NCBI GenBank assembly: GCA_041641295.1
Contig: JBEPYO010000001.1
Coordinates: 640,001 to 704,000 of the forward strand
Reading direction: 5' to 3'
Origin: Nitrososphaerota archaeon
GTDB taxonomy: Archaea > Thermoproteota > Nitrososphaeria_A > Caldarchaeales > Calditenuaceae
Length of the DNA stretch: 64,000 nucleotides
Shown here: piece after piece, positions 8,841 through 50,842 of the stretch
How the letters are laid out: every line of letters begins with the position of its first letter
How positions within the stretch are numbered: the first letter of the stretch is position 1
Position numbers and translations under genes: made by a program
The notes under the pieces: model-generated
The model's database searches: none
What the model saw: the letters and a program-made list of their open reading frames with translations, nothing else
Told to the model about the DNA's origin: nothing

Positions 8841-8848
8841 AGGGCACT

Positions 8849-9697: not shown

Positions 9698-9701
9698 TAC
9701 C

Positions 9702-9884
9702 CTACTCTCCCCAGTCCTCCCCCACTTCCTCGGCCAGCCTCAGAGTCCTAGAACCGTTGCTTGTGACTAGTTCGAGTTGGGCTCCACACTCTTCATGCTC
9801 GAAAAGCTCGCCGTCAAGGGCGTCGTCGGGGATTTTGACGGCGCCGAAGCAGACGGGACACTTGAGTTCCGGCAATAGGCTCAC
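9702..9884 (-). CDS. lysW: amino-group carrier protein LysW
   Basis: Zn-ribbon CPVC...HEEC and the diagnostic C-terminal EDWGE. Confidence 0.97.
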   Translation of the reverse strand: MSLLPELKCPVCFGAVKIPDDALDGELFEHEECGAQLELVTSNGSRTLRLAEEVGEDWGE

Positions 9885-9936
9885 CTATTCCGTACCTAAG
9901 ACACCTGAATTCTTATTGATAAACGTATCTCGACTG

Positions 9937-9961
9937 CCGTAACTCGTATTTCCGGTTACGG
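9937..9961. promoter_or_regulatory. inverted repeat CCGTAAC-N11-GTTACGG upstream of the lysW TATA-like box; candidate Lrp/LysM-type site
   Basis: Perfect 7-bp arms. Minus-strand TTTATCAA at 9916-9923 lies about 32 nt before the lysW start. Confidence 0.45.
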
Positions 9962-9991
9962 GTATAGTATCCTCAAATCCTCTATGCGGCG

Positions 9992-10816: not shown

Positions 10817-11868
10817 ACAGGGCTTATGGGCAGCATGTTCAGCCCCTCCCTCTCATCAAGCCCGAGCATAATGTTCATGCACTGGACCGCCTGGCCTGCA
10901 GCCCCCTTCATCAGGTTATCTATGGCAGCGAATAAGGCTGCCCTCCTCCTAGAAGGCTCAACCGCGAACCCCACATCGCAGAAGTTGCTTCCAATCACGT
11001 ATTTCGGGTCCGGATACTTTACTGGGCCGGAGCGGACTATACGTATGAAGGGTTCCTTACCGTAGTGTCTTGCATAGGCCCTCCATATGGTGGTCTCGTC
11101 TAGAGAGTCTGCGAGCCAGACGTGGGCGGTTGCCAGGGCGCCCCTAACGTTGCCGACCGCGTGGGGGACCATGGCTATCTGAAGCCTTCTGCCGCAGAGG
11201 AGTGAGAGCTCCTGCTCAACCTCCGCCACATGCCTATGCCCTTCCGCCTCGTAAGGTCTGATTACGTTGGCTCTCTCGGGGTGGTGGGTTCCTTGACTGG
11301 GCTGCCGCCCAGCCTCGCTGCTCCCCACTTTAACGTCCACGGCAATGTGCTCTACTTCTATAAGCCCCTCCCTCACCGCTGGGGCTAGAGCGAGTATAGC
11401 TGCTGTCGCGTTACACCCCGGACAAGCCACTACCCGCGCATTCCTTATCTCGTCCCTGTGAATCTCGGGCAGCCCATAAACACTCTCCGACAGCAGTTCA
11501 GGGTCTCCGTGCGTAAACCCATACCACTCCTCGTAGAGCCGAGGGTCTCTAAGCCTGAAGTCTGGGCTTAAGTCCACAACCCTTAAACCGGCCTCAACCA
11601 GCCGCCGAGCCATCGTGTGAGATACGCCCGAAGGGACGCTCAGGAAGACCAGCTCGGCCTCGGAGACTATCTTCTCCAAGTTGAGTTCGGAGAACTTCAT
11701 CGTGCCCAATACTGAGCGGAGATTTAGGTGAACAGCTGCTACAGGTTTTCCGGCATACTCGCGTGAGGTAGCTGCGACGATCTCGACGCGTGGGTGGGTC
11801 GCTAGGAGTCTTAAGGCCTCGCCGCCAGTATAGCCGCTCGCACCTATTATCGCAACCCTTGTGGTCAT
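10813..11868 (-). CDS. lysY: [LysW]-aminoadipyl/glutamyl-phosphate reductase (ArgC family)
   Basis: IIGASGYTGGE, DLSPDFRL, YGLPE, catalytic PGCNAT, DNLMKGAAGQAVQ. Confidence 0.93.
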   Translation of the reverse strand: MTTRVAIIGASGYTGGEALRLLATHPRVEIVAATSREYAGKPVAAVHLNLRSVLGTMKFSELNLEKIVSEAELVFLSVPSGVSHTMARRLVEAGLRVVDLSPDFRLRDPRLYEEWYGFTHGDPELLSESVYGLPEIHRDEIRNARVVACPGCNATAAILALAPAVREGLIEVEHIAVDVKVGSSEAGRQPSQGTHHPERANVIRPYEAEGHRHVAEVEQELSLLCGRRLQIAMVPHAVGNVRGALATAHVWLADSLDETTIWRAYARHYGKEPFIRIVRSGPVKYPDPKYVIGSNFCDVGFAVEPSRRRAALFAAIDNLMKGAAGQAVQCMNIMLGLDEREGLNMLPISPV

Positions 11869-15989: not shown

Positions 15990-16754
15990 TCAGTTAGTGG
16001 ACGGTGATTCTCCCAGCCTGCTCCTAAGCCGTCTCAGAAACCGCTCCGTTCTCTCCCTCCTCGGCCGCTCTAGGACTTGACGGGCATCACCCTCCTCAAC
16101 GATCTGACCCTCATCTATGAAGACGACACGGTCTGCCGCCGCCTCGGCAAAGTCCAACTCATGTGTGACGATGAGCATTGACCTGCCCTGCTTCGCGACT
16201 TGGTATAGGGTCTCGACAACCTCGTATCTCAGCTCGGGGTCCAGTGCAGAGGTAGGCTCATCTAGTAGGAGTAGTTTGGGGTCAATCGCTAGAGCCCTCG
16301 CTATAGCGGCTCTCTGCTGCTGGCCACCCGAGAGCTCCAGAGGATACTTTCCGGCTAATTCTCCGAGGCCGAGCATGTCAAGAACGGACTTAGCCGTCTC
16401 CTCTGCCTCTCGTCTACTCATCCCCTTACTAAGCTCTAGTGGAAGGGCCACATTCCTGATAATGGTCATGTGGGGAAAAAGGTTGTATTGCTGGAAGACA
16501 AACCCTGTATTCGCTCTTATTCTTCTGAGGACCGCCGGGTCAGGGCTCACAGTGAGCCCGTCTATGCGAATCTCCCCACTCCAAGGCCTCACCAAGTATG
16601 GAATACATTTCAGGAGCGTGCTCTTGCCCGAGCCACTCGGGCCGAGAATAACGACTTTCTCGCCCCTCTTGACGCGCAGGTCTATGCCCCTCAAGACCTC
16701 AACCTTCCCATAGCCAGCCCTTAACCCGTTAATTTGCAGCAGCTCCTCGCTCAA
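15990..16754 (-). CDS. polar amino acid ABC transporter ATP-binding protein (GlnQ-like)
   Basis: GPSGSGKST, FQQYNLFPH, LSGGQQQR, DEPTSALDPE. Confidence 0.93.
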   Translation of the reverse strand: MSEELLQINGLRAGYGKVEVLRGIDLRVKRGEKVVILGPSGSGKSTLLKCIPYLVRPWSGEIRIDGLTVSPDPAVLRRIRANTGFVFQQYNLFPHMTIIRNVALPLELSKGMSRREAEETAKSVLDMLGLGELAGKYPLELSGGQQQRAAIARALAIDPKLLLLDEPTSALDPELRYEVVETLYQVAKQGRSMLIVTHELDFAEAAADRVVFIDEGQIVEEGDARQVLERPRRERTERFLRRLRSRLGESPSTN

Positions 16755-17419
16755 ACTAGAGCCCTCTTATAACCGGGAATAGCATATCGCGTCTCCAGCA
16801 TCTTAGAAAACTGCGACGTGGGCAGACAGATGGCGAGATAAATCGCAGCGGCCAGCAAGTATATCTCGGGCATAAACGTGTAGGAGACCATATACTCGGT
16901 CCTTCTAAACAGCTCGGCAACACCAATAATCGAGGCGAGCGACGTATACTTGATGAGGGCTACAAACTCGTTGACTAGCGCGGGGGTGGCAACCCGGATT
17001 GCCTGCGGAAATATGATGAACCGGTAGGTCTGGACAGTCGTCATCCCAAGCGACTCCGCGGCAAGATACTGCTCCTCAGGAATACCCTTAATCGCAGAGC
17101 GGAGGATCTCGGCCTGATAAGCCGCGCTATTGAGGCCGATCGCTATCACAGAGGCTGTGAAAGCGTCCAGCCTAATACCAACCGTGGGAAGACCAAAGTA
17201 GATAAAGAATATCTGCACGAGTAGCGGTGTTCCGCGGAAGAACTCGATGTACGAGCGGGAAATAATCGAAAGTGGCTTAGAGCCAAAAACTCTTGCCGCG
17301 GCTAAGACGGCCCCCAGTGCTAAGCCGAGAGCGAAGGAGAGAAGTGTCAGCTGCATCGTTACGGGTATGCCCTCCAGCAAGTAGGGGAGGATCTGGAACA
17401 AAAAACGACTAATGTCCAA
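16751..17419 (-). CDS. polar amino acid ABC transporter permease (HisM/GlnP-like)
   Basis: FRGTPLLVQ, SAAYQAEILRSAI, IIFPQA. Confidence 0.93.
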   Translation of the reverse strand: MDISRFLFQILPYLLEGIPVTMQLTLLSFALGLALGAVLAAARVFGSKPLSIISRSYIEFFRGTPLLVQIFFIYFGLPTVGIRLDAFTASVIAIGLNSAAYQAEILRSAIKGIPEEQYLAAESLGMTTVQTYRFIIFPQAIRVATPALVNEFVALIKYTSLASIIGVAELFRRTEYMVSYTFMPEIYLLAAAIYLAICLPTSQFSKMLETRYAIPGYKRALV

Positions 17420-17432
17420 CTCCTAAAACCGT

Positions 17433-18263
17433 TTATTGCCCAAGCCACTTATTAATTTCTTCCTCGAAGATCCGGCTCATCTCGCCGCTTGACGTAAGAT
17501 CTTCTATCACCTTGTTGACGATGTATTTCAGCTCCTCTTCACCCTGTGGGATTCCTATAGCAGCACCGCTTAGACTCCCAATCTTCAGGACTACAGCCAG
17601 CTCAGGGTCGCGGGATGCAAGCACGGTAGCGATTATGTCTCCCACGATTATCGCGTCGAGGTCTCCCCTCTTTAGCGTCATGACCATCTCGGGGTAGACC
17701 CGGTCATAAGAGACTATGTTAGCCTTTCCCCCCAGGTTCTCCTTGGCCCACTCCTCCTGTATCGTGCCCTGCTGGACACCTATGTTTTTGCCGACCAGCG
17801 CTGACTCTGAGGTGATTTGAGACGCCTTACTCTTAAGCACCACGACCGCGGCGTCGTATGCCACATAGTATCCCTTAGAGAAGTCGATCTCTCTTTCACG
17901 CTCCGCCGTGTGGTGGAGATCTGCCAAGATAAGGTCGATCTGCCCAGCCTTCAAGGCCTGAATCAAAGCACCAAACTTCATGTCGCGGATCTCAAGTTTG
18001 ACACCGATCTCCCGCGCAATCCTATCAGCAATCACGATGTCTATGCCAGCGAAGTTGCCCTGCGCGTCTATGTATTCGAAGGGCGGCCAGTCTGCGCTCG
18101 TACCAACTATTAGCACACCTCGACTCTTAATTGTGTCGAGAAGAGACGGCTTGGCCGGTGGAGTCATAAGTGAGGAGGCTGCATAAAACCCACCGGCACC
18201 AATAACAACACCTACAACCAATGCGACTGCAATCCAAACGGCACCAACACTTTTAGCCGCCAT
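17433..18263 (-). CDS. polar/basic amino acid ABC transporter substrate-binding protein (SBP family 3)
   Basis: N-terminal TM anchor, GTSADWPPFE, ERE-x-x-IDFS, GVQQGTIQE. Confidence 0.9.
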   Translation of the reverse strand: MAAKSVGAVWIAVALVVGVVIGAGGFYAASSLMTPPAKPSLLDTIKSRGVLIVGTSADWPPFEYIDAQGNFAGIDIVIADRIAREIGVKLEIRDMKFGALIQALKAGQIDLILADLHHTAEREREIDFSKGYYVAYDAAVVVLKSKASQITSESALVGKNIGVQQGTIQEEWAKENLGGKANIVSYDRVYPEMVMTLKRGDLDAIIVGDIIATVLASRDPELAVVLKIGSLSGAAIGIPQGEEELKYIVNKVIEDLTSSGEMSRIFEEEINKWLGQ

Positions 18264-20262: not shown

Positions 20263-22617
20263 ATGACGTTAACTAAGCTGTTCGGCGCTAAGGTTCGGCG
20301 TAAAGAGGACCCACGGCTCTTGACCGGCCGTGGAAAATTTACGGCCGACATACATCTTCCCGGGACTTGCTATGCCGTTTTTGTTAGAAGCATGCGCGCC
20401 CATGCCCGGATCAAATCTGTTGACGTCTCGGATGCGCTTAGAATGGAGGGCGTGATAGCTGCCTTGACAGGTCAGGATATTAAAGATGCGTTAGGGGCAG
20501 TGCCTACTGCTTGGCTGCTACCCGGAGCCGAGCTCAAAGTGCCTAGGTATATGCCGTTGGCGGTGGACCGGGTAAGGTATGTTGGAGACCCTTATGCTGT
20601 GGTTGTAGCCAGTTCGCCCTACATAGCGGTCGATGCTGCTGAGCGTGTCAAGGCTGAGTTTGAACCCCTTCCTTCAGTAACCAATCCTGAGAGGGCGGTC
20701 CAGCCCGGTGCGCCACAGCTCTATGACGATGTCCCAAATAATACTGCGCTTGTCTGGAGGGCCTCTGGCGGAGATGTTGATGAAGTGTTTTCACGCGCAG
20801 ATGTTATAGTCAAGCAGAAGATGTTTATTAATAGACTTCAGCCTACGCCGATAGAGACTAGGGGCGTTTTAGCCGTCTATGACAGGTATGCCGAGAAGGC
20901 CACCGTCTATATAACCAGCCAGTTTCCACACGTCCACAGGCTTCTTCTATCGGAGATTACAGGCATACCCGAACACCGGCTCCGCGTGGTCTCCTACGAC
21001 GTGGGAGGGGGATTCGGTTCAAAGGGTCACTGTTACGGAACAGAGGCAGTGGTCCTGTATTTGGCTATGAGGCTGGGAATTCCAATCAAGTGGATTGAGA
21101 CGAGGGAGGAGAACTTTAAGTCGACTATCCATGCGAGGGAACGTGTCGTATATGCAGAGGCTGCGGCGGCTAGGGACTGCAGGGTTCTGGGTCTTCGGGT
21201 GAAGTGTTACGCCAACTTGGGCGCCTATCTCTCTACATTTGCCCCCGGCATAGCTTCCTTAGTGTTTGGGGGCACGTTCCCGGGCCCCTACAACATCCAA
21301 GCCGTCTCGGTCGAAGTAGTTGGGGCTTTGACCAATACAGCACCGGTTGATGCGTACAGGGGGGCTGGCATGCCTGAGGGCACATATGTTCTCGAACGCT
21401 TGATTGACTTGATTGCTAAGGAACTCAACATGGACCCTGCAGATGTTAGGGCGCGCAACTTTATTCCTAGAGATGCATTCCCATACCGCACACCCATGGG
21501 GCTTACCTATGATAGCGGTGACTATGAGAAGGCTTTCAGAAAGGCTCTCGAACTTGCAGAGTATTGGCGCTGGCGCGAAGAGCAAGAGCGCGGCAGGGCT
21601 GCAGGGCGGCTGATCGGAGTCGGTATCTCGAGCTTCGTGGAGCTCAGTGGGCTGGGGCCGTCGGCGGCTATGAGGGCTGTGGGGTTAAGCTTGGGATTCT
21701 GGGAGAGCGCAGTTGTGAGGGTTCACCCGACTGGAAAGGTTACAGTCTTCACCGGTGGTCATCCGCATGGGCAGGGTGAGGAGACCACCTTCGCCCAAAT
21801 AGTTGCCGATAAGCTGGGAGTGTCTATCGAGGATGTTGATGTCGTCCACGGGGATACGGAACTCACCCCGTTTGGGCTGGGCACGTACGGTAGCAGGACA
21901 GCAACGGTCGGAGGCGGAGCCATAGCACTAGCATGTGACAGAATAATCGAGAAGGGAAGGAAGATCGCGGCCCACTTGCTAGAGGTGCGTGAGGAGGACG
22001 TTGCATTTGAGGCGGGCAGATACTACGTGAAGGAGCTACCCGAGAGGCAGAAGAGTATACAGGAGGTGGCCCGCGCAGCCTACGCAGCCGGCGTCAACGA
22101 ACTCCCACAAGGAGTAGAGCCAAGCCTAGAGGCCACGGCCTTCTACGACCCATCAAACTTCACGTTCCCATTCGGCACACACGTCTGCGTAGTCGAGGTC
22201 GACCCGGAGACCGGCCAAGTCAAGATTCTGAAATACGTGGCTGTAGATGATTGTGGAAACCAGATAAACCCGATGATTGTTGAGGGACAGATTCATGGAG
22301 GAGTGTTGCAAGGGCTTGCTCAGGCGCTCTACGAGGAGGCGGTTTATGATGAGAGCGGCAACCTGCTGACCTCAACGCTCGCCGACTACTTGGTGCCAAC
22401 GACCGTAGAAGCACCTGACATCATCACAGATTTCACAGTCACTCCCTCCCCCCACAATCCACTGGGCGTTAAGGGTGTAGGTGAGGCCGGAACCATAGCC
22501 TCCACATCGGCAGTAGCCAATGCTGTTCTAGACGCCCTCACACACCTCGGGGTCAGACACATAGACATTCCACTCACACCCGAGAAGATTTTGAGAGCGC
22601 TAGGAAAGATTCAATAA
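20263..22617 (+). CDS. xanthine dehydrogenase-family molybdopterin large subunit (CoxL/CutA-like)
   Basis: [51 protein letters not shown]. Confidence 0.92.
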
Positions 22618-39266: not shown

Positions 39267-40205
39267 ATGGAGAAAAAGAAGGTAATTGCTCTAACTATCG
39301 CAGCAGCTGTAATATTCGTCGCGGCTGCTCTTCTAAGCCTTCAAACCCTCACACCGAGACCTGGAATTACAAAGATAATACTGGCTATACAGCCGACACA
39401 AAACCCCCTAGACATAGCCGAGTCGTCCAAGAATCTTAAGGAGTTTCTCGAGAAGAGGCTGGGACTCCGGGTAGAAGTGTATATACCGACCGACTATGCA
39501 GGCGTCATAGAGGGGCTTAGGTTCAAAAATGTCCACGTCGCCCTTATGGGGTCCTGGCCCGCATACCTAGCAGTCAAGAATGCGGGCGCCGAGCTCCTAC
39601 TCGCAGAGGTTAGGACTGTCGCGGTGGGGGATCAAAAAGTCAACGCGACCTACTATTACTCGTACTGGATTGTTCTAAAGGATAGCCCATACAAGTCGAT
39701 CGAGGAGCTAAAAGGGAAGCGCGCCTGCTTCCCCAGCCCCATATCCTCTTCAGGCTTCCTAGCCCCTATGGCGCGGCTGGTTGAGCTTGGCCTTCTCAAG
39801 CGTGGAAGCGGAGAGCCTGTAAACCCGCGCGAATTCTTCGGCGAAGTCATCTTCGGTGGAGGGTATGGCCAGTGTTGGGAGGCACTTCGCGCGGGGCAGG
39901 TTGACGTAACAGTAATGGCGGGCGACGTGTCATACGAGCTCTACACCAAGGCCATGGGCTCGTCAAGAGTTCTAGAGACTCAAGGCCCCCTGCCTTCACA
40001 TGGTGTAGTAGTCTCATCGGACCTGCCCGACAGCCTCAAACAGAGGATAAAGGAGGCGTTCCTAGAGCTTTCAAAGCCCGAGTACAGGGATTTGATGAAA
40101 CGGCTAGTCTCGGCCCTGTTTGTAGGATTTGAGCCTAAGACCACCAGCGACCACCTCGGCACTCTTGAGAAATACATTGAGGAGACGGGGTTACAGTATA
40201 CTTGA
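39267..40205 (+). CDS. phnD: phosphate/phosphite/phosphonate ABC substrate-binding protein
   Basis: DYAGVIEGLR, YYYSYWIV, SPISSSGFLAP, GGYGQ; in operon with phnC and phnE homologues. Confidence 0.85.
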   Translation: MEKKKVIALTIAAAVIFVAAALLSLQTLTPRPGITKIILAIQPTQNPLDIAESSKNLKEFLEKRLGLRVEVYIPTDYAGVIEGLRFKNVHVALMGSWPAYLAVKNAGAELLLAEVRTVAVGDQKVNATYYYSYWIVLKDSPYKSIEELKGKRACFPSPISSSGFLAPMARLVELGLLKRGSGEPVNPREFFGEVIFGGGYGQCWEALRAGQVDVTVMAGDVSYELYTKAMGSSRVLETQGPLPSHGVVVSSDLPDSLKQRIKEAFLELSKPEYRDLMKRLVSALFVGFEPKTTSDHLGTLEKYIEETGLQYT

Positions 40206-40936
40206 GTAGCATCTTAGAAGCGAAGAATGTATGGTTCACGTACGATTCTAGAAACTATACACTCAAGGATATTTCGCTATCCATCGAGGCTGGTAAAATA
40301 TACATGGTGTTTGGTAGAAGCGGTGCAGGTAAGTCAACACTCCTAAAGATACTGAAAGGAATACTCAAACCATCACGCGGTGAAGTACTCTTTATGGGGC
40401 GGCCCACAACTTCAATCGATACAGCCAAGAGAGCATATAGCGTCATAGGATATATTCCCCAGGGATTCGGCATAGTCTCCAACATCTCCGTGCTTGACAA
40501 CGTCTTAGTAGGTGCTCTCGCCAGGGTTCCTCTACTCCACTCCATCTTAGGGCAATTCCCCAAGGAAGAGAGAGATAGGGCTGAGGAGATATTGGAAATG
40601 ATGGGGCTCGCCCAGTTTAAGTACCAGAAAGTCTCCCAGCTGAGCGGGGGTCAGAGGCAGCGAGTAGCTATTGCGAGAGCTTTGATGCAGAAGCCCCAGG
40701 TCATACTGGCTGACGAGTTTGTGAGCCAGCTTGACCCACTGACTGCCCTAGAGGTGCTAGACGTTTTCCGCGAACTCGCTGACAAGAGGGGAATAGCCAC
40801 AGTCATAACAAGCCACGACATCCACCTCGCCTCAAGGTATGCGGACAAAGTATTGGTCCTGAGGGATGGTCAATTTAAGCTCTGTAAGGATGGGCGAAGC
40901 GTCTCCGAGTCAGACTTAATCGCAGCCATGAGGTGA
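40202..40936 (+). CDS. phnC: phosphonate-type ABC ATP-binding protein
   Basis: GRSGAGKST, VLDNVLVGAL, LSGGQRQRVAIARALMQ, LADEFVSQLD. Confidence 0.87.
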   Translation: MSSILEAKNVWFTYDSRNYTLKDISLSIEAGKIYMVFGRSGAGKSTLLKILKGILKPSRGEVLFMGRPTTSIDTAKRAYSVIGYIPQGFGIVSNISVLDNVLVGALARVPLLHSILGQFPKEERDRAEEILEMMGLAQFKYQKVSQLSGGQRQRVAIARALMQKPQVILADEFVSQLDPLTALEVLDVFRELADKRGIATVITSHDIHLASRYADKVLVLRDGQFKLCKDGRSVSESDLIAAMR

Positions 40937-41694
40937 GGCTCTTCTTGAAAATCAAATATAGCGGGCGAATAATCATACTAGTGCTATTCTTTTTCTCGCT
41001 GTGGCAGACAGGATTTTTCGACCCAGACCGCGTCGCGAGGATACAGAATATTGGGCCATTCTTAGCTGGAATGCTTCCACCAGACCTCACGATTATCCCA
41101 CAAGTCCTCTCCGCAGTTTACGAGACAGTCGTCATGGCTTTCGCTGGAACACTAATGGGTGGCGCGCTTGCCCTGGCCCTAGCAATATTCAGTACGAGGC
41201 TTCTATTTCCCCCGCCTATCATGGCTCTTTTCCGGACAATACTCGCCCTGATAAGGACTATACCAGCGATACTATGGGCCTTGATATTCGTAGTCATAGC
41301 TGGCTTCGGCCCTTTCGCTGGAGTGCTAGCCATAACATTCTACACTACGGGCTATCTTGGAAAACTCTTCTACGAAGCCTTCGACTCTGTGAGTAGTGAA
41401 GTCTTGGAGGCGGTTAGGGGGGTTGGAGCCTCGAGACTCCAGCAGCTAAGATTCGCAATCCTCCCGGAGTCAGCGAACTACATCCTTAGCCAGCTACTCT
41501 TCATCTTCGAATACAATGTCAGAGCCTCCACTATCGTCGGCCTAGTAGGTGCAGGAGGGGTAGGATACCTGATACTAGCCCTAGTCCAGTCGCTGAGATA
41601 CAGCGGCCTCCTAACAACCATACTGATACTGCTAGCATTTGTACTCGCGATAGATTTTATCAGCTCGAAGGTTAGGTCGAGATACTTCACCTGA
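40933..41694 (+). CDS. phnE: phosphonate-type ABC permease
   Basis: RTIPAILWALIFV, GYLGKLFYE, FEYNVRASTIVGLVGAGGVG. Confidence 0.9.
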   Translation: MRLFLKIKYSGRIIILVLFFFSLWQTGFFDPDRVARIQNIGPFLAGMLPPDLTIIPQVLSAVYETVVMAFAGTLMGGALALALAIFSTRLLFPPPIMALFRTILALIRTIPAILWALIFVVIAGFGPFAGVLAITFYTTGYLGKLFYEAFDSVSSEVLEAVRGVGASRLQQLRFAILPESANYILSQLLFIFEYNVRASTIVGLVGAGGVGYLILALVQSLRYSGLLTTILILLAFVLAIDFISSKVRSRYFT

Positions 41695-41976: not shown

Positions 41977-42867
41977 TTAAAGCGTCTTGGCGTGGCAGTC
42001 TATCCTAATTTTGGGCAGTTGTGTGAGGCTTGTCTTCCTTGCGTAGCTGATTTCTGAGAGGGCCCAGAACCTATCATTCACATCGCAAAGCCAAACCTGA
42101 GACAGCCCTATTGTTTTCCTCCTAACCGCAAGACCCTTTGGATGGATGGGGTAGGCTACGGCTTGGTGAGCACCCTCTTCACGGGCGGCGAGCGGCTCAC
42201 GGCCTATAAACACCTTATATTTTTCGAGTAGCTTTGAGTGGAATTTCTTGAGCCACTGTGTCATCTCGAGTCCGAGGGCGGCTGCGGGCCCCGCCCTTTC
42301 TATCACCACCACATTATTCTCATCTTCTAGGACCAGGGAGAACATGCCTGTAGTAGAGTTTATGGCGCTTATCCAGAGCGTGGAGGGGGCGAGTATTTGG
42401 AACTCGTAGAGACTTAGGAGCATCATGCCATCGCTCCGGTGGCATTTAAGACTTCTGAAGATGGCTGCCCAGTCTTCACTTTCCTGCTGGAGGTTCAGCT
42501 TGAAAAATTTCAACACCCCCGAGCACGCCCACGCATAGGCTATAAAACGACCTGCCTCTACGCGGCCAGTAATCTTCAGAGCCCTGTGCCCAAATATCTC
42601 GCCCTCGTATTTTTCGACATCTGCCCACTTCTCAGCCTGTCTACTCTTGATGAGCCTCTCAACCCACTGGGCGAGCCCTACGGCATCGTAGTTCTTAGAC
42701 CTGTCAACTATAATCTCCACTCTAGGATAACCTTTGTCAGAGAATACTGAGTAGGAGCTGTGCGGCCCTATCCTCTCCGCGGCTAGCCTTAATGTCTCGG
42801 GTGCGAGAAACTCTATGCCACGCCAACCGATGAGTGTCTGATTAGCTATATCCGATGTGTTAGACAA
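41977..42867 (-). CDS. hypothetical protein made of two tandem repeats, each with H, WxC and CH motifs
   Basis: Halves align by eye: FLAP/ILAP, GHRA/AHQA, WAC/WLC, LKCH/IDCH. Overlaps the upstream gene by 8 nt. Confidence 0.75.
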   Translation of the reverse strand: MSNTSDIANQTLIGWRGIEFLAPETLRLAAERIGPHSSYSVFSDKGYPRVEIIVDRSKNYDAVGLAQWVERLIKSRQAEKWADVEKYEGEIFGHRALKITGRVEAGRFIAYAWACSGVLKFFKLNLQQESEDWAAIFRSLKCHRSDGMMLLSLYEFQILAPSTLWISAINSTTGMFSLVLEDENNVVVIERAGPAAALGLEMTQWLKKFHSKLLEKYKVFIGREPLAAREEGAHQAVAYPIHPKGLAVRRKTIGLSQVWLCDVNDRFWALSEISYARKTSLTQLPKIRIDCHAKTL

Positions 42868-43879
42868 GACCCATCAATGTCATTAGCGAGAAGGCTGCGG
42901 CCCACGCAGCGCCAGCCCTAAACCTCCCCAACCCATACACCACGTTAAGTGCATATGCCCCTAGGCCCGAAATCCAGAGCCAAGCAACCGGGGAGAGCGC
43001 CCTTCTAATATAGGTCAAGGCGAGCTCATCGCTTGACATCTCTGACAGCCCCATTATCGTCGCATCAATATATCTGTACGTCTCAACCTCGGCGGAACTC
43101 CAGTTCAAATATAGCGGAGTAACTTGAGAAATGTTGAAGGGGACAGCTATTCTGTCCACACCATTAACTACTGCCTCACTGAGCATCAGCCCTTCAATGG
43201 TTATCCTTTGACGACCTCCCTCCAAGGCCCTCCTTTTTTCAGCATCGCTCAAACCTGTGAGGTTTACCCTTAACCCCGAGGAGTCTAAGACCTCCGCCTT
43301 CAGAGTCAAGGCACGCGCCAGAGGAGCATAAATAGCTGAGCCGTTGGACAATATGTCCTCTCTAACACCCGCCGGGACTTCGACACCCTCATAGATCCCA
43401 GTGACTGAAAGGTCGCGAAAACCAACACCATTTGCCTCATATCCATAAACGATGATGGTGGATGGTGGGAGAAGGAGGCTAATTAGTGAGCCGACGGCAA
43501 TGAAGATGAAGAGTATCAGGAATCCGTTCAGTATGGATGAAAGGATAGATAACAGGTTTCCATTCTTCTTTTTGAGGAAGAACGAGAAGACCCACAGTAC
43601 TCCGAACAACACTCCTATGGCTAGGAAGAAGTAGGCAATCTGCCGAGCAATGACAAACCTTATGTCTACGGTGGGTGTCGGAATCTTCTCATCAAAAACA
43701 TTGATTATCTCGAGCCTAGGCAAGGACACTAACGTATCTAAGGTGATGCTGGATGCCACTACGAGGAAGAAGATGAGCATTGCTACTCCAGTACCTGGTC
43801 TCTCAGAGATCTCTGAAATCACCTTTCCCGGGCTGTGTATTATCCTGATGGGGCGTGTGAGCAGGGATGTGAAAGACAT
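42860..43879 (-). CDS. Yip1-like membrane protein with large extramembrane insertion
   Basis: N-terminal IIHSPGKVISEISERP followed by 3 TM helices, an approximately 150-aa insert, and 2 more TM helices. Confidence 0.65.
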   Translation of the reverse strand: MSFTSLLTRPIRIIHSPGKVISEISERPGTGVAMLIFFLVVASSITLDTLVSLPRLEIINVFDEKIPTPTVDIRFVIARQIAYFFLAIGVLFGVLWVFSFFLKKKNGNLLSILSSILNGFLILFIFIAVGSLISLLLPPSTIIVYGYEANGVGFRDLSVTGIYEGVEVPAGVREDILSNGSAIYAPLARALTLKAEVLDSSGLRVNLTGLSDAEKRRALEGGRQRITIEGLMLSEAVVNGVDRIAVPFNISQVTPLYLNWSSAEVETYRYIDATIMGLSEMSSDELALTYIRRALSPVAWLWISGLGAYALNVVYGLGRFRAGAAWAAAFSLMTLMGLV

Positions 43880-43892
43880 GGCAGCGTTACAC

Positions 43893-46800
43893 TTAATCTA
43901 TCTGCTCCTTGATAAGTCCTTTCGAGAACTCTAAGTACCTGTTCCTCTCCTCGACGGTTATTGCCCTCCAGATTAGGACCTGCTTTCTGAGGTCGTCTGC
44001 AAAGAAGTATGCCTGGGTAGCCCACATCGCGTCTGCTCCGCTGATCTTTGTCATGATTAGCTCGAACGAGTATCTCTTGGCAGACTCCTCGTAGATGGAG
44101 GCTATCTCTACGTGCTGGTTTATGCCCTGTTCGTAGGGGGCCAGCGAGACATCCAGCCGCAGCCTCATTTCGCCCCTATTGTTTAATACTGGTGGCATGA
44201 CCTCTCTCACGGTGTAGCTGGGCTTCTGCGCACCAGCTCCGACATAATACTCGTATAGGAAGGCCATGAATGCCGCTGCCTCGTCCCTGTTGTCGATGCT
44301 TAGTGGGAGTGGGAGGCGCCATACCCCCTGCTTGGGCTTTGTGGGTGGCTTCCACTTCCTCTCGAGGGAGGGTGTGACCAGCATGGCGGCAATTCTTGAT
44401 GGGTATACTGAGGCAAGCATGGCGGCTAATATCACGATGCCGAGGGAGAGCATTATGAAGATGGAGGCATAGTTGAGAGTGTAGACTCTTGGCAGGAGCC
44501 CGAATTCTATGAAGGCCCTGTTCAACACGAATCCATTTAGATACCCGATGAGAGCGCCTAGCGAGGCGTAGACGGCAGATTCTACGAAGAAGAGGAAGCT
44601 GGAGCCTAGAGGCGGCAAGCCTAACACAGAGTAGACCGATATCTCCCGCCTCCTCTCCTCCACACTGCCCATGAGGTTAATTACCGTATTTAGTGCGCCG
44701 ATGACAATCAGCGCCGGCACAATCTCCCACCCAACGGTCTTAAAGCTCGTGACACGGGAGCCCCTATATGTCGAGCCGCCCTCACCCACGTATACCGCGA
44801 GGTCTGTAACCATGCTCAAGTCTCTGGCGAGCTGGCGCATACTCTCGCCGGCCCCACCTTCCGCGGGATAAATGTTGTAGGACGCCGTGTATCCGCCGAG
44901 GCTGGTAACTAGTCCGTATGGAGCGATAATCAGCCTGTCCCACGAGAGGGGAGGCGGAATCTGCTGTGCGGGCACAGTTGCGCCAAAGGCTATGGATCCT
45001 ACATAGTATGGATTTATAGGCGCCATTGAGAAGCCGCTGATCTCGAACAGTTTTTCAGCTTCGGCAGCAGAGTATATGCCTACTACTTTTAAGGGGAGGC
45101 CCATGGCATAGAGCCTGTCACCGACCTGAACTCCAAGCATCTCTGCCAACGTATCAGGGACAAGTATCTCGTAGGCGTATTCACTACTGAAGATGCTGCT
45201 GGGGCCCTTTGATTGAATTATGCAGCAGGCTCCTAGTTGTACGACTGAGCTATTCTCATTCCCTACTAGCTGCGCAACTGTTCGCTCAAGGTCAGGTCCT
45301 GTGAGGCCTAGTATTGCATGGATGTTGTAGAAATTTCCTGAGAGCGGGTCCTTGCTGAGCTGGAGTATTGGGCCCACCGCAGGGTAGATTGAGACTGGGT
45401 AGTACCATGCCCTAGGTGCCACCACCATGCCCTGCGCCTCGTAAGCCTTCAGCACCTCACGCCCCTCATCACCCATGACGCCTCCAACTGGGATACCATA
45501 GCCAATCCTCACCGAGACCCCATCTGTTGGTGCACTCTGTGGTAGCGACGGGAATGCAACATCAACCGAGGGAGCGACTGAGGTGAAGATTGAGAGTCCG
45601 AGTGTCACACCTATGATTGAGCCGATTATCAGCGTAGTCCTCAACCTCCTTCTCCTCATGTTTTCTACGGCTGTGTTATATGCGACAGCCATTATCCCCA
45701 CGCGGCCAATCTCAAGAACGTGAGACCCAAGCATCCTGTAGGATATGCTACGCCTTACGCGCTCAACTTCGTTACCCAAGACCGAGAGAACAATCATGTA
45801 CAGCACTATTGTGAGGAGGCCGAAGACTGCCATTAGAGCTGTGCTCATAACACTGAATGCGGGGTGAACCTCGGTGAAGATTAGGAAGAGGACAGCGCCC
45901 ACAGATATTATCGATAGAAGCCTCTTCTTCCCTTCAGCATGTATGACCAGACGCTCTACGAAGACGCTGCTCAAGACTATTAAGCCTATAAAGAATAGGC
46001 TTGTGTTTGAGGAGTCGTTTATAAGACCCATAACCTCGTTGTACGCCCTGTATGCCCAGCCCCACGCAAGCATTGAGTAGGACTGGAAGAGGGAGTACTT
46101 TCTATTGGAGTAGGCCTCCTCGGCCAGACGTAGATACTTCTCAACCTGCTCCAGCTTCTGCTCGATGCTAATGGTCTTAACATTCTTGGAGCTCAGCGCA
46201 TCATACCTGCCCTTGGTTATTCTGTACATATCGAGCGCAATTCTGTAGGCTGTGTTGTGAACCACCAGCTCGTGTTCAGACTTGAAGCCTACACCCTCCG
46301 TCTCCCTCTCAGTCGAGTTTACGAGGGCTATGTATGGCACACGGGAGAGGGCTACTCCAGCCCCACCAAGCCTGCCAAGAACCATGAAGACTTCGCCGGG
46401 CTGAGTGAAGACTACACCCACAGGCTCATACATGTTAAAGTAAACTCCATAGAAGAGCAGATCGCCTCTGATTCGGAAGTTGAGGGGGACTATCTGGGCG
46501 CCGGCTGTATGATACCACCCACCTCCGAGCCCAGCTTGCCCGCCTGTCGTCGGCGCTGCCCACCCCGCCAGGTGCGGGTCAGGCATTAGTGCCGGCCTGA
46601 AGTTGGTGAGGTCTATGACGTCGAAGATGTAGGTTGGCACAGCCCTGAAGACGACTACTGAGACCTCGTCATAGGGTGAGAGGGGAGAAATTGTCGGCGG
46701 AATTGACCTAGCACCATAGATGCCGAGGTCGGGGGCGTATATTATCTCCCCAGTCTCATCATCGAATCCCCATGCCTCGACGAAATATCTGCTGCCCGGG

Positions 46801-48638
46801 ACGAATGGATAAGGCACAAGACCCTTAATAGTGAACATTCCATTCTCATCGGCGAAGGTCATCATCTTGTTGAAGGGATATGGTAGTGGCCAGTAGCCTG
46901 CGCTGAGGCCGCCTCCCACCGCCGTCCCACCTCCAGGTCCATAGACAACTGAGGCGGTGGGTGTGAAGCCTACATAGACCCTGACTAGGAGCTTGGGAAC
47001 CGGCCTATACCATCCAACCGATGCGTTATAGGTGATAACCTTCCCCCTAAGCTCGATGAAGCCTGCATATTCTGCAAAGCCTCCGGGCTGTATGAATAGG
47101 CGAGAGGGTGAGACGCTCTGCCAGCTAATTCCAAGGCTTTTCTCATTCAGGAATGAGTCGATGATGTGGGCTATTGTGTAGAGCTGGGGACGGAGGCGCT
47201 CCAAATCCACTAGAGAGAGGTCGCTAACAGGAGTTCCTATCCAAGACAGTGATGTCTGGGAGGATTGTATTGTGAAGGCTATGCCCCTCGTCTGCTCTGC
47301 AGGCTCTGTATCAAGCATGCTTGGATACTGCTGAGAACCCCAGTACATCGTGTTGGTGAAGAACTCCTTTACAAAAGAGTCGGATTTTATACCAGTCATC
47401 TTTTGAAGATTCGAGACAAAGTCTTCATCATGAATATAGCTGGTGAATATCTGTCTCCTTATCCAAGAGTATCTCACAGTTATTCCTCCAGCGTTGCCTG
47501 TCGTCGCGTAAAGGTTAAGCGCGCTCCCTCTCAGCAGGTCAAGCCCTATTCCATAGGGGTCTAGTTCTCCGATTCCTATCATGAGGATCGGTCTGAACCT
47601 GCCCTCCGCAACCTCCCGGGAGAAGTAGAAATTATCCACGAAGTTCCTCGGACCGGCTAGCCCCTGCCAATGCCCGCTAAAGAAGACGAACCAGGCATTC
47701 CAGTACGGCTTATTCTCTGAATAGTATCTTGCAAGCTCTAGGAGGAATGCTGGGGGAACTGCCTCCATTGCTGCCGGGGAGAGTGCGGGGACGGCTGACC
47801 AGCTATCAAACCGCGCGGTGAAGATCATGGTTGTCGGATCGGCACTATTCGTGCCGTTTAGCGCGCCGATCACATTATAGGCCGTGGTCTCGATGTATCT
47901 CATTCTAACGAAGACAGTTACCCTCGCACCTTTTTCAGCAGCTTCTTTCAGTCTTTCTCCTGTTTCACTTGTGACGTAGAGTCGGGGAAAGTTAAGTGGG
48001 GCGTCGATGAACTTTTTTAGAGAGTCTAGGTAGTGTGGGACTGCTGGTGGCTCGATAAAGATTACAGCGCGTGCTCCAAGCTTCGCAGCGTTTAGCCAGT
48101 TGGAGCCGCTAGTATAATCCATGAGAACAATGCTTCCGACAACATCTTTCCCGTCAAAATCCTCCAGCTCTCCACGCCCCACATATATTAAGTGTCCACG
48201 TACCCCCTCTTTCCTTGTCATGGAGGTGTGGGGCCCGTTTGGCCAGACGGCATATGCTTCAAGCCTCGTCCTCTCTCCTCTTGATTCAAGCTCGATGTAT
48301 GAGCCCTCGTCGATCGGTACTACAACACTGTAATTCTGAATAATCACTTTGAGGCCCATCTCCCTAAGCCTGTCAGCGATATATTGTGCGGCCTTGTAGT
48401 GTCCGGGATAACCCGTCACGCGGCTTCCAAGGCTACTTAGATACTCTATATGCTGGGCCATTAGGGAAGTGTTTATGTCGTTAGGCGAGACTTTCTTTAG
48501 AGGTGTTTCCTGGGCCTCTGCTATTGGGACGTGGGTAAGAGAGAATGTTGACACAAGTAGCAATAGGGTTAGAGCTATTGTGATGCTGTGTCTGAGGTGC
48601 CTCGGACGAGTGCAGGAAAGCATTTCTTTCGGGTACAT
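43893..48638 (-). CDS. giant FtsX/MacB-family permease with N-terminal M28-like/PA ectodomain
   Basis: Signal peptide; LSSLGSRVTGYPGHYKAAQYI; PA domain (IYVGRGELEDFDGKDVVGSIVL, AAKLGARAVIF); ARFDS; extra TM bundle; NMRRRRLRTTL; LAEMLGVQVGDRL; SVEERRREISVYSVLG. Confidence 0.85.
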   Translation of the reverse strand: MYPKEMLSCTRPRHLRHSITIALTLLLLVSTFSLTHVPIAEAQETPLKKVSPNDINTSLMAQHIEYLSSLGSRVTGYPGHYKAAQYIADRLREMGLKVIIQNYSVVVPIDEGSYIELESRGERTRLEAYAVWPNGPHTSMTRKEGVRGHLIYVGRGELEDFDGKDVVGSIVLMDYTSGSNWLNAAKLGARAVIFIEPPAVPHYLDSLKKFIDAPLNFPRLYVTSETGERLKEAAEKGARVTVFVRMRYIETTAYNVIGALNGTNSADPTTMIFTARFDSWSAVPALSPAAMEAVPPAFLLELARYYSENKPYWNAWFVFFSGHWQGLAGPRNFVDNFYFSREVAEGRFRPILMIGIGELDPYGIGLDLLRGSALNLYATTGNAGGITVRYSWIRRQIFTSYIHDEDFVSNLQKMTGIKSDSFVKEFFTNTMYWGSQQYPSMLDTEPAEQTRGIAFTIQSSQTSLSWIGTPVSDLSLVDLERLRPQLYTIAHIIDSFLNEKSLGISWQSVSPSRLFIQPGGFAEYAGFIELRGKVITYNASVGWYRPVPKLLVRVYVGFTPTASVVYGPGGGTAVGGGLSAGYWPLPYPFNKMMTFADENGMFTIKGLVPYPFVPGSRYFVEAWGFDDETGEIIYAPDLGIYGARSIPPTISPLSPYDEVSVVVFRAVPTYIFDVIDLTNFRPALMPDPHLAGWAAPTTGGQAGLGGGWYHTAGAQIVPLNFRIRGDLLFYGVYFNMYEPVGVVFTQPGEVFMVLGRLGGAGVALSRVPYIALVNSTERETEGVGFKSEHELVVHNTAYRIALDMYRITKGRYDALSSKNVKTISIEQKLEQVEKYLRLAEEAYSNRKYSLFQSYSMLAWGWAYRAYNEVMGLINDSSNTSLFFIGLIVLSSVFVERLVIHAEGKKRLLSIISVGAVLFLIFTEVHPAFSVMSTALMAVFGLLTIVLYMIVLSVLGNEVERVRRSISYRMLGSHVLEIGRVGIMAVAYNTAVENMRRRRLRTTLIIGSIIGVTLGLSIFTSVAPSVDVAFPSLPQSAPTDGVSVRIGYGIPVGGVMGDEGREVLKAYEAQGMVVAPRAWYYPVSIYPAVGPILQLSKDPLSGNFYNIHAILGLTGPDLERTVAQLVGNENSSVVQLGACCIIQSKGPSSIFSSEYAYEILVPDTLAEMLGVQVGDRLYAMGLPLKVVGIYSAAEAEKLFEISGFSMAPINPYYVGSIAFGATVPAQQIPPPLSWDRLIIAPYGLVTSLGGYTASYNIYPAEGGAGESMRQLARDLSMVTDLAVYVGEGGSTYRGSRVTSFKTVGWEIVPALIVIGALNTVINLMGSVEERRREISVYSVLGLPPLGSSFLFFVESAVYASLGALIGYLNGFVLNRAFIEFGLLPRVYTLNYASIFIMLSLGIVILAAMLASVYPSRIAAMLVTPSLERKWKPPTKPKQGVWRLPLPLSIDNRDEAAAFMAFLYEYYVGAGAQKPSYTVREVMPPVLNNRGEMRLRLDVSLAPYEQGINQHVEIASIYEESAKRYSFELIMTKISGADAMWATQAYFFADDLRKQVLIWRAITVEERNRYLEFSKGLIKEQID

Positions 48639-48758: not shown

Positions 48759-49835
48759 GTGAGGGAGTTGGGGGAAATTAAGGTCGGGATTATAGGTTGT
48801 GGGGGTATTGCGCAAAATGCTCACATTCCGGGCTATCAGCGTCTCGCGAATGTGAAGGTCGTGGCTTGCTGTGATGTTGTGGAGTCTGTCGCAAGGACGG
48901 TTGCTGAGAAGTTCAGTATTCCGCGTTACTTTACTGACTATGAAAAGATGCTTAAGAGTGTGGAGTTGGATGCCGTCAGTGTCTGCACACCTAACGCCCT
49001 CCATAAGGAGCCGACAATAATGGCACTTGAGCGCGGCGTACATGTCCTAGTAGAGAAGCCCATTGCCACGAGTGCAGAGGATGGGGCCGCGATGGTTCGT
49101 GCCGCTAGGAAGGCTGGTAGGATACTGATTGTTGGCTTTCAGGAGCGCTTCAACCCTTACGGGATGGTGGTTAAGAAATTTGTGGAGCGTGGGGACTTGG
49201 GGTGGGTTTACTATAACAGGGCAGTTTATCTGAGGAGGAGGGGAGTGCCGACTTGGGGAGCCTTCCTGAACAGGGAGCTGCAGGGAGGTGGAGCCCTGAT
49301 AGATATCGGCGTCCACGCCCTTGACCTAGCGATGTATCTTCAGGGGTTCAAAAAGCCTGTTAGCGTGCTGGGCAGAGCCTACACCCTCTTCGGAAAGGAC
49401 AGGGAGGCTGCTGAAGCAAATATTTGGGGCGCATGGGATACTGAGAAGTTTGAGGTAGACGATAACGCATTCGCTGTAGTGACCATGGAGGATGGCTCAT
49501 TCCTAGTACTTGAGACTTCTTGGGCCAGCCACATCAAGTCGCAGGGCCTCTTCAACGTCTATCTCCGAGGGACGAGGGGTGGTGCACAGCTTGACCCTCC
49601 AGAAATATATATGGATAGGAATGGAGTTGCCTTTGATATGACACCTGTTATTAACACTAAGCCGGATTGGAGGGAGCAGTCCTACATTAAGATAAAGAAA
49701 TTTATCGAGTCGATTGAGGTTGGGAAGCCTCTCTACGCGCCGGGCGAGGAGGGAGTGGTTGTGCAGAGCGTCATCGACGCCATCTATAGGTCGACTGAGA
49801 CGGGCAAGGTCGAGCCAGTACACATACCCCTATAG
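48759..49835 (+). CDS. Gfo/Idh/MocA-family NAD(P) oxidoreductase
   Basis: GIIGCGGIA, CTPNALH, VEKP, GGGALIDIGVHALD. Confidence 0.93.
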   Translation: MRELGEIKVGIIGCGGIAQNAHIPGYQRLANVKVVACCDVVESVARTVAEKFSIPRYFTDYEKMLKSVELDAVSVCTPNALHKEPTIMALERGVHVLVEKPIATSAEDGAAMVRAARKAGRILIVGFQERFNPYGMVVKKFVERGDLGWVYYNRAVYLRRRGVPTWGAFLNRELQGGGALIDIGVHALDLAMYLQGFKKPVSVLGRAYTLFGKDREAAEANIWGAWDTEKFEVDDNAFAVVTMEDGSFLVLETSWASHIKSQGLFNVYLRGTRGGAQLDPPEIYMDRNGVAFDMTPVINTKPDWREQSYIKIKKFIESIEVGKPLYAPGEEGVVVQSVIDAIYRSTETGKVEPVHIPL

Positions 49836-49858: not shown

Positions 49859-50842
49859 ATGGAGTACGTTAATCTGGGCAGGGCAGGGGTCAAGGTCTCT
49901 AGAATCTGTCTAGGATGCCTCAACTTTGGCAATGCCCGTGAATGGATGGTTGAGTATGATGGCGCGAAGAAGGTCTTTGAGAAGGCGTGGGATTTGGGCA
50001 TCAACTTCTTCGATACCGCTAATGTCTATTCGCGGGGAAGGTCTGAGGAGATTCTCGGGATGCTGCTGGAGGGGAGGAGGGATGACGCCGTGGTGGCCAC
50101 TAAGGTGTTTGGCAGAATGGGTGAGGGCCCGAACCAGGCAGGATTGTCAAGAAAGCATATCATGTGGCAGGTCCGCGAGTCTCTTAGGAGGCTTAGGACA
50201 GACTACATAGACCTATACCAGATACATAGATGGGACTATGAGACGCCGATTGAAGAGACGTTAGCGACACTTAACGACTTAGTCAGGGCAGGTAAGGTCC
50301 ACTACATCGGCGCCTCGAGCATGTGGGCTTGGCAGTTCACCAAGGCAATATACATCAGCAGGATGAAGGGCTACGCCGAGTTCGTCAGCATGCAGAACGT
50401 CTACAACCTGTTATACAGGGAGGAGGAGAGGGAGATGATCCCATTCTGTAAGAGTGAGGGCATAGCGATAATCCCATGGAGCCCCCTAGCGGTAGGAGTC
50501 CTAAGCGGGAAATACTATGTGAACGGCAGGCTGGTAGTGACGGAGAAGGATTTTGAGCGTATAAGGCCCGGCACGAATGACTATAACGCGTACATCGCGC
50601 CACCTGAGAATGCCGAGATTGTAAGGAGGGTGATTGAGGTGGCGCAGAATAAGGGTGTGAAGCCATCCCAGATAGCCTTGGCTTGGTTGTTTAAGAAGGG
50701 TGTGACAGCGCCCATCATAGGGACGAATAATCCGGCCCATGTGGAGGAGGCTGTTGAGGCTCTCAAGATAAATCTCAGCGACGATGAGGTCAAGTATCTG
50801 GAGGAGCCCTACAGACCTAAGCCTGTCTTCGGGCACAGGTAA
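49859..50842 (+). CDS. aldo/keto reductase (YajO/Tas-like)
   Basis: GINFFDTANVYSRG, VATK, DYIDLYQIHRWD, GKVHYIGAS, PWSPLA. Confidence 0.93.
   Translation: MEYVNLGRAGVKVSRICLGCLNFGNAREWMVEYDGAKKVFEKAWDLGINFFDTANVYSRGRSEEILGMLLEGRRDDAVVATKVFGRMGEGPNQAGLSRKHIMWQVRESLRRLRTDYIDLYQIHRWDYETPIEETLATLNDLVRAGKVHYIGASSMWAWQFTKAIYISRMKGYAEFVSMQNVYNLLYREEEREMIPFCKSEGIAIIPWSPLAVGVLSGKYYVNGRLVVTEKDFERIRPGTNDYNAYIAPPENAEIVRRVIEVAQNKGVKPSQIALAWLFKKGVTAPIIGTNNPAHVEEAVEALKINLSDDEVKYLEEPYRPKPVFGHR

Follow-up and report, generated by a model that had tools for sequence, protein, structure and literature searches.

Does an archaeon carry a prokaryotic relative of nicastrin and nicalin, the eukaryotic membrane proteins with inactive ectodomains of the M28 fold? 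The question was raised by a stretch of 64,000 nucleotides (nts) from a Nitrososphaerota archaeon (GenBank assembly GCA_041641295.1, contig JBEPYO010000001.1, positions 640,001 to 704,000, forward strand), all of which was analyzed and which we call the window. An initial annotation, made from the sequence alone, had read the minus-strand segment at 47640-48480 as a catalytically dead M28 ectodomain of the nicastrin/nicalin type. The segment encodes residues ∼54 to 333 of a multidomain membrane protein of 1581 amino acids (aa), P0001, and is spanned by the open reading frame of that protein at 43893..48638 on the minus strand. The peptide originally quoted is present in the protein, with TARFDSW at residue 274, PALSPAAMEAVPPA at residue 284, and FFSGHWQGLAG at residue 319. 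The N-terminal head of P0001 has the predicted fold of an M28 aminopeptidase and has lost the catalytic set of these enzymes; the C-terminal half is a permease of the MacB/FtsX type.

We modeled residues 40 to 545 using 73 aligned relatives from genome loci. The resulting model of the head had a predicted local distance difference test score (pLDDT) of 90.7 and a predicted template modeling score (pTM) of 0.92. When it was searched against the PDB with Foldseek, the top group consisted of bacterial M28 aminopeptidases with a PA domain (2ek8, which was the best match at 5.6e-28, B. subtilis BSAP [6hc6], P. aeruginosa PaAP, and 3iib), and glutamate carboxypeptidase II (GCPII) and the transferrin receptor (TfR) ranked after them. 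The VIA structure search, which is independent of Foldseek, aligned the head with the Aeromonas aminopeptidase 1rtq at Z 28.0 (root mean square deviation [rmsd] 2.5, 265 residues aligned) and with 2ek8 at Z 27.5 (390 of 412 residues aligned). Further VIA matches were LapA (Z 26.4), SGAP 1cp7 (26.3), PaAP (26.0), TfR (25.9), GCPII (25.1), and glutaminyl cyclases (∼24). Thus, the M28 fold proposed for the ectodomain was borne out by the prediction and by both structure searches.

Comparisons of sequences agreed with those of structures, and together they put the M28 match well past what chance would give. In a phmmer search of the PDB with the single sequence, 2ek8 was matched with an E value of 1.4e-12 and YwaD (6hc6) with one of 1.6e-9; with the family profile, the values were 1.6e-27 for 2ek8, 3e-16 for YwaD, 5e-10 for the Aeromonas enzyme, and 5e-9 for TfR. 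The Pfam profile Peptidase_M28 (PF04389) matched residues 40 to 520, scanned alone, at 24.7 bits versus a cutoff of 21.3, a match that covers only positions 1 to 79 of the 193 in the profile; it matched 69 of the 73 relatives, the best at 6.3e-18. Peptidase_M28 was not reported in a Pfam scan of the whole 1581-aa protein, in which FtsX was above its cutoff and PA was below threshold. On residues 40 to 520, the Pfam PA profile scored 21.8 bits, just short of its cutoff of 23.9, and it matched 48 of the 73 relatives. Structural alignment of the head to the PA-bearing proteins 2ek8, TfR, and GCPII spans the PA insert, which lies between the first strands of the M28 domain and its core and which shapes the substrate cleft in related enzymes. 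In the model, therefore, residues ∼46 to 505 are a complete M28 aminopeptidase fold with an inserted PA domain. The gene, the parts of its head, and the positions of the former active site are as follows.

43893..48638, minus strand: whole gene, a 1581-aa open reading frame and the sole copy of the M28-permease family in the 1.56-Mb genome
48528..48584, minus strand: N-terminal hydrophobic segment, residues 19 to 37, a signal peptide or anchor by hydropathy scan, with predicted topology
47124..48503, minus strand: pseudo-aminopeptidase ectodomain, residues ∼46 to 505, with the complete M28 fold and PA insert according to the model, VIA, and Foldseek
47949..48170, minus strand: PA insert (Pfam match at residues 157 to 230), from Pfam PA and structural alignment
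47811..47813, minus strand: R276, in place of the first zinc-ligand His of HxD, from the alignments to 2ek8 and P0272
47766..47768, minus strand: M291, in place of the ligand or bridging Asp of GAxDD/N, from the profile alignment to 2ek8 and hhalign to P0272
47667..47672, minus strand: H323-W324, in place of the catalytic Glu and the ligand Glu, respectively, from the alignments to 2ek8 and P0272
47568..47570, minus strand: G357, in place of the fourth ligand (Asp/Glu, closing the IN[FM]D strand), from the alignments including that to P0272
47235..47237, minus strand: G468, where 2ek8 has the His of WYHTP as the fifth ligand, from the profile alignment, second domain

These positions were mapped by HMMER residue alignment to the active enzyme 2ek8 and by hhalign to P0272, a YwaD-type relative that retains H, D, EE, and E; the position of G468 comes from a second stretch of the profile alignment that is weak but collinear. 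The three substitutions that had been noticed at first, H to R, the loss of the DN motif, and EE to HW, all held in these alignments, and two more, G357 and G468, were added to them. Next to the lost ligands, D278 of HxD and E292, which follows M291, are retained. The window protein has none of the five metal ligands of the canonical M28 site and lacks the catalytic Glu; with all of these lost, the head would be unable to work as an M28 peptidase, and the loss of the catalytic motifs read in the initial annotation was confirmed.

The same columns vary to different degrees among the 73 aligned relatives. At R276 the residues are H (56), Y (8), R (7), and S (2), and at G357 they include D (49) and G (11); at G468, 55 relatives have G and a single one has H. 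The column at M291 is highly variable (27 D, 13 E, 9 T, 7 M, and others). The positions of the Glu-Glu pair are far more uniform, with H (72) and F (1) at H323 and W (57) and Y (16) at W324, and no Glu was found at either of them in the 73 aligned relatives or in the 120 best further database relatives. The site is most stripped in the window's close clade, whose pattern is RMHWGG (6 of 73). At the other end, 29 of the 73 keep His, Asp/Glu, and Asp at three ligand positions; in the Aeromonas aminopeptidase these are the ligands of the second zinc.

Strong purifying selection acts on the domain. The ratio of nonsynonymous to synonymous substitution rates (dN/dS) of the N-terminal domain was 0.051 to 0.072 in the 11 of 15 pairs within the window's clade for which it was computable, dS being saturated in the others. 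Thus, the head is maintained by selection.

The M28-permease family is large. A representative library (clusters at 50% identity) held 2180 proteins at an E value of ≤1e-3 and 556 at ≤1e-30, nearly all of them ∼1450 to 1580 aa long; in the 90% library, 515 of the 7997 scored candidates reached ≤1e-3. A scan of one genome per species gave 79 loci, which together with the window make the 80 sources referred to below. All 79 are archaeal, labeled Thermoproteota, Thermoprotei, Bathyarchaeia, Brockarchaeota, or Nitrososphaerota or unclassified, and a metagenome-assembled genome (MAG) can have up to four of them (e.g., L030, L036, L047, and L053). The closest loci belong to Archaeon HR02 and to Calditenuaceae MAGs, and the host is of the TACK type, as the initial annotation had supposed. 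Partial family proteins (P0252, P0254, P0261, P0264, and P0266; E values of 1e-85 to 1e-102) also occur under the labels of Armatimonadetes, Bacteroidota, Planctomycetota, and Latescibacterota MAGs; these fragments are either rare bacterial members or misbinned archaeal contigs.

The rest of the protein consists of the following parts.

45999..47003, minus strand: beta-rich middle region and helical stalk, residues 546 to 880, extracellular, from the secondary structure of the model
45780..45998, minus strand: three extra transmembrane (TM) helices, residues 881 to 953, from the model and hydropathy
44382..45632, minus strand: MacB/FtsX-type (type VII ATP-binding cassette [ABC]) permease module, from Pfam FtsX, Foldseek, and VIA
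43896..44381, minus strand: C-terminal cytoplasmic alpha+beta domain, residues 1420 to 1581, from conserved columns

Residues 546 to 1581 were modeled with 62 relatives (pLDDT, 82.4; pTM, 0.76). Pfam FtsX (PF02687) matched residues 1310 to 1417 with an E value of 2e-9 (38 bits versus a cutoff of 25.5), and the LolC/E models of NCBIfam also matched, all below threshold. The best Foldseek match was MacB 5gko (7.4e-10), accompanied by LolCDE (LolC/E), YbbP, HrtB, YtrF, BceB, and periplasmic domains of MacB. In VIA, the same model matched YtrF at Z 16.0, 5xu1 at 15.1, MacB at 14.5, LolC at 13.4, and FtsX at 13.2; the isolated periplasmic domains of MacB and LolE gave Z values of 11 to 12 with rmsds of 3.4 to 5.3, and the MacB periplasmic domain 3ftj gave Z 12.2 (rmsd 3.5, 184 aligned). 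The hydropathy map places TM1 at residues 1003 to 1021, an extracellular core domain at 1022 to 1301, TM2 to TM4 at 1302 to 1411, and a cytoplasmic tail at 1420 to 1581. This map fits the topology of MacB, in which both termini of the module are inside. With the N-terminal hydrophobic segment and seven further predicted helices, the total is eight, and the predicted topology puts the M28 head and the core domain of the permease both outside the cell. The C-terminal half is thus a MacB/FtsX-type permease module.

Two parts of this half have no ready counterpart in our searches. The beta-rich region and stalk (residues 546 to 880) returned only generic helical-bundle matches. The tail domain, which begins after the last TM helix with the near-invariant motif TPSLERKW, had no Pfam match and no usable match in the ESM Atlas; VIA gave weak KA1-like and START-like matches at Z 8 to 9, which is the range of common arrangements, and therefore we leave its fold unnamed. 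It occupies a place where an energy-coupling partner might dock.

How the head and the permease are arranged was approached by complex prediction, in which the permease core (residues 1022 to 1302) and the M28 head (residues 40 to 509) were supplied with our own alignments. Three runs gave ipSAE interface scores of 0.73, 0.75, and 0.81 (median, 0.75), versus 0.00 for the best of three controls. Of 80 solved complexes, 58 attained this docking mark, versus 2 of 110 mismatched pairs, counts that are rough given the use of our own alignments. The runs shared at least 75% of their contacts, and the pLDDT of the partners was at least 87. On the permease side, the predicted interface contains a conserved WYYP stretch (W1078 and Y1080, each in 57 of 62 relatives); on the side of the head, it contains PA residues 158 to 205 and the loops at 360 to 364 and 460 to 465, which flank the former ligand positions 357 and 468. 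The head is therefore predicted to dock on the extracellular domain of the permease by the face around its old cleft.

These results suggest how the protein might work. The M28 head is joined to the permease through the beta-rich region, the helical stalk, and three membrane helices, and would sit on the extracellular domain of the permease, where it would bind a ligand or act as a clamp and be moved by the permease. The permease would be powered in trans by an ATPase of the LolD/MacB type whose gene lies elsewhere in the genome. The logic would resemble that of FtsEX acting through EnvC, which is likewise dead and peptidase-like. We consider it probable that the head is such a noncatalytic module for ligand binding or clamping, placed on the permease domain and moved by it. 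Of what was first claimed about function, the noncatalytic role therefore stands as the best reading of a dead domain maintained by selection; the kinship with nicastrin and nicalin that came with it does not, as described below.

What such a module would bind may be hinted at by its neighbors. Of the 80 sources, 59 encode one and 57 the other of two multipass membrane proteins of ∼640 to 690 aa no more than 6 kb from the family gene. In Pfam scans, one type matched OPT (one of the two scanned) and the other matched DUF6785/DUF6784 (both of the two scanned). The family gene and the genes for the OPT-like and DUF6785/DUF6784 proteins often form a trio on one strand (L001 to L079). In most lineages, then, the work of the permease may involve the OPT-like neighbors, which hints at peptides. 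In its fullest form, the proposal is that of a MacB-type permease with a fused dead aminopeptidase as its extracellular working part, which would make the window protein the first example of such a machine in archaea. Cytoplasmic ATP hydrolysis would open and close the old cleft, which would then capture extracellular peptides or protein termini, hold them, or pass them on; in most lineages, the two adjacent OPT-like proteins would receive them. We regard this fuller version as possible but doubtful. If true, peptide-fermenting Thermoproteota would have a new way to acquire peptides or to handle surface proteins.

Several observations weigh against the idea of a binding module driven by the permease. 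We identified no ligand for the M28 head. The OPT-like pair that is typical of the family is absent at the window locus, so a peptide role deduced from the pair may not apply here. No cluster of ABC ATPases conserved near the family genes was found among the 80 sources, and none of the 55 ABC_tran matches in the window genome is adjacent to the main gene. The docking is one model of two pieces of a single chain, which is outside the calibrated use of the method. D278, E292, and H323 are strongly conserved, which could mean a remodeled catalytic or metal site. Finally, the M28 tree described below puts its single, long-branched nicalin at the node between the family and other M28 proteins, and a deep link to nicalin is possible.

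The energy source of the permease is, in the absence of an adjacent ATPase gene, assumed; likewise, no nucleotide-binding domain was found fused to the 1581-aa protein. A candidate lies ∼700 kb from the main gene, in a second region of the window genome (L082, G000:C1:1374000-1392000; features at 1990-5208(-), 7460-9553(-), 9675-11582(+), and 16414-17166(-)). There, a LolD/MacB-type ATPase (G000:C1:1390414-1391166) matches TIGR02211 with an E value of 4.6e-75 and a score of 251.9 bits, which is under the cutoff of 307.75. The ABC ATPases of the window itself belong to an amino acid importer operon and to another transporter (40202-40936).

The same region holds the genome's own DUF6785 and OPT-like pair, ∼5 kb from the ATPase. 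The pair, with a PMT-type glycosyltransferase, adjoins a 1072-aa MacB_PCD/FtsX paralogue that has no M28 head and is 26% identical to P0001 over the permease part. Because the pair here stands beside a paralogue without the head, it appears to go with the permease module rather than the M28 domain.

Among other explanations, the one that survives best is that the head serves passively, as a structural cap or spacer on the surface part of the permease, with no ligand of its own and uncoupled from transport. Consistent with this account are that neither a ligand nor a partner was identified, that the columns of the former ligand pocket differ among paralogues, and that the predicted docking may mean simply that the head is held on the permease domain. 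The constraint on the head is strict for a mere spacer, however, and H323 and W/Y324, at the old catalytic center, are nearly invariant. The PA insert, with the cleft-shaping role that it has in relatives, is also retained in the fold. We therefore judge a passive cap to be unlikely.

The conserved residues could instead belong to an enzyme. The head might have a remodeled site made of D278, E292, H323, and E445 (with R276 in the window's clade), or, in other members, a residual single-metal site of His/Asp/Asp. D278 is found in all 73 relatives, E or D at 292 in 72, H323 in as many, and E445 is invariant; the 29 relatives with their presumptive second-zinc residues fit the residual site, and strong purifying selection is what an enzyme would show. 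Yet the Glu-Glu pair, which every member counted has lost, is not known to be dispensable in any M28 enzyme. In the window's clade, the first His, the two Asp positions, and the last His are gone as well, and the column of the bridging Asp is highly variable across the family. Continued catalysis is thus an improbable explanation, less well supported than a passive cap.

This leaves an explanation close to the proposal with which the locus came to attention, that the head belongs to the nicastrin/nicalin lineage as a prokaryotic member, or is ancestral to it, and acts as a gatekeeper of substrates homologous to those of eukaryotes, with a bearing on eukaryogenesis. There is a likeness: the head, nicastrin, and nicalin are all inactive M28 ectodomains on multipass membrane machines. 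Sequence comparison detects it as well. Nicalin chains were found in the PDB at E values of 0.62 to 0.78 with the single sequence and at 1.5e-6 with the family profile, and hhalign aligned the family with nicalin P0326 at 96.0% (score, 73.5; E value, 4.9e-9; 313 columns). Pfam Nicastrin (PF05450) matched 20 of the 73 relatives weakly, the best at 6.1e-5; the window protein had no match to it at an E value of ≤10.

By every measure, however, active bacterial PA-M28 enzymes are closer. With the family profile, 2ek8 was matched at 1.6e-27 and nicalin at 1.5e-6, and hhalign gave YwaD-type P0272 99.2% and a score of 148.5. A profile search of proteins of 248 to 895 aa returned first fragments of the same M28-permease family, next YwaD-type aminopeptidases (best, 2.4e-22, 97 bits), and last a single nicalin (4e-4, 37 bits). 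Neither nicastrin nor nicalin was among the best 50 Foldseek or the best 50 VIA matches (lowest Z, 17.8), which is not evidence of exclusion. The active site differs too, and no derived catalytic state is held in common. In nicalin P0326, HYDS and GADS are retained and the Glu-Glu pair is replaced by GG, in the family by H-W/Y; the catalytic losses therefore look independent. In architecture, the head belongs to an eight-TM permease of the MacB/FtsX type and not to a single-pass protein.

Phylogeny did not decide the matter. A quick maximum likelihood tree of 37 M28 rows, with one nicalin and zero nicastrins, recovered the window family as monophyletic with a support of 99. The nicalin stood on a branch of 3.26 substitutions per site, without support, at an unresolved node that joins the family and 20 other M28 proteins; this is beside the family and outside the other M28 groups, but neither supports nor rejects a link. 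None of the 79 loci, all of them from TACK-type or unclassified archaea, is Asgard by record title. A protein search seeded with nicalin gave only teleost nicalins among the 120 matches listed and so did not shorten the nicalin branch. A relevance to eukaryogenesis thus found no support in the distribution of the family or in its nearest kin, and we hold descent from, or ancestry to, the nicastrin/nicalin line to be highly improbable. The head is homologous to nicastrin and nicalin only in that all are M28 derived. As part of the reading that we prefer, it probably arose from YwaD-like PA-M28 aminopeptidases within the archaeal family, and the conversion to a dead peptidase in archaea looks like an independent invention. 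Last, the intact 1581-aa frame and the low dN/dS rule out that the gene is a decaying pseudogene.

Two genes downstream of the main gene and in the same orientation are specific to its close relatives.

42860..43879, minus strand: gene for a 339-aa membrane protein, 13 nt past the main gene, found in the close clade only
41977..42867, minus strand: gene for a 296-aa protein, next downstream, with an 8-nt overlap with the 339-aa gene, found in the same close clade

Both genes are common to the window and five close loci, and the cluster of the 339-aa protein has members in 6 of the 80 sources, the window counted. A Pfam scan gave no match for either protein.

The remaining genes that we noted in the window are of various kinds. 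Upstream of the main gene and divergent from it are 48759-49835 (+) and 49859-50842 (+), which by eye only resemble a Gfo/Idh/MocA oxidoreductase and an aldo/keto reductase, respectively; the protein of the former clusters with those of 13 other loci near family genes. Downstream of the main operon and on the opposite strand, 39267-41694 (+) is a three-gene ABC transporter, whose middle gene (40202-40936) matches ABC_tran and whose resemblance to a phosphonate-type importer is by eye only. Farther away, 15990-18263 (-) is a polar amino acid ABC importer operon with a GlnQ-type ATPase, a permease, and a substrate-binding protein (NCBIfam). A 784-aa molybdopterin enzyme is encoded at 20263-22617 (+); its best match is the aerobic CO dehydrogenase large subunit (E value, 3e-229) and its second is glyceraldehyde dehydrogenase alpha (1.2e-223), both under the curated cutoffs.

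We found no published description of an M28-FtsX fusion, of the trio with OPT-like and DUF6785 proteins, of DUF6785, or of comparable prokaryotic relatives of nicastrin or nicalin in the titles and abstract openings that were covered. Systems that resemble parts of P0001 are nevertheless well known. The head shares its two-part fold of M28 and PA with the bacterial aminopeptidases of Aneurinibacillus sp. AM-1 (2ek8) and B. subtilis (YwaD/BSAP, 6hc6), and with them the conserved Asp of HxD, the helix that follows the ligand Asp, and the GxxG that follows the Glu-Glu strand. Those enzymes have the five zinc ligands and the catalytic Glu that are missing from the window head; they are also free secreted proteins, whereas the window domain is the N-terminal head of a 1581-aa permease. 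Within the family, the paralogues that keep H-D-D and the fully stripped clade of the window form a graded natural series of site decay.

Dead peptidase folds are known as binding modules in nicastrin, nicalin, and the transferrin receptor and, from another peptidase family, in the bacterial FtsEX-EnvC system. Nicalin (in the BOS complex, 6w6l and 7tm3), nicastrin (in gamma-secretase), and TfR1 each place an M28-derived extracytoplasmic domain without peptidase chemistry on a membrane machine; the VIA match to TfR and the hhalign match to nicalin amount to homology with the window head at the level of the superfamily. By comparison with these ectodomains, the head may work as a binding or gatekeeping module. 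There are differences, too. Nicalin retains the His and Asp, and its scores fall far short of those of the active bacterial enzymes; nicastrin and nicalin have a single C-terminal anchor, whereas the window head is joined in cis to a permease of the MacB type. The case also cautions against reading every inactive archaeal M28 ectodomain as a precursor of nicastrin.

The permease half has the plan of MacB, LolCDE, YtrEF, and FtsEX-EnvC, namely, TM1, an extracellular core, TM2 to TM4, and the FtsX signature. It differs from MacB/FtsX-type systems in its three extra TM helices, in its C-terminal cytoplasmic domain, and in having no nucleotide-binding domain fused or adjacent. The closest parallel in design is FtsEX-EnvC (8hd0), which VIA matched to the permease half at Z 11.1 and in which FtsEX acts through EnvC, a catalytically dead LytM protein that is also extracellular. 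In the window protein, the dead peptidase is of the M28 and not the M23/LytM type and is fused in cis, and the host archaeon has no murein wall. The M28-permease family would thus be a further, apparently independent conversion of a peptidase to a pseudoenzyme, this one in archaea, fixed in a very large family and wired to a mechanotransducing permease of the MacB type. As a single polypeptide, it offers a tractable system in which to ask how such permeases move an extracellular effector.

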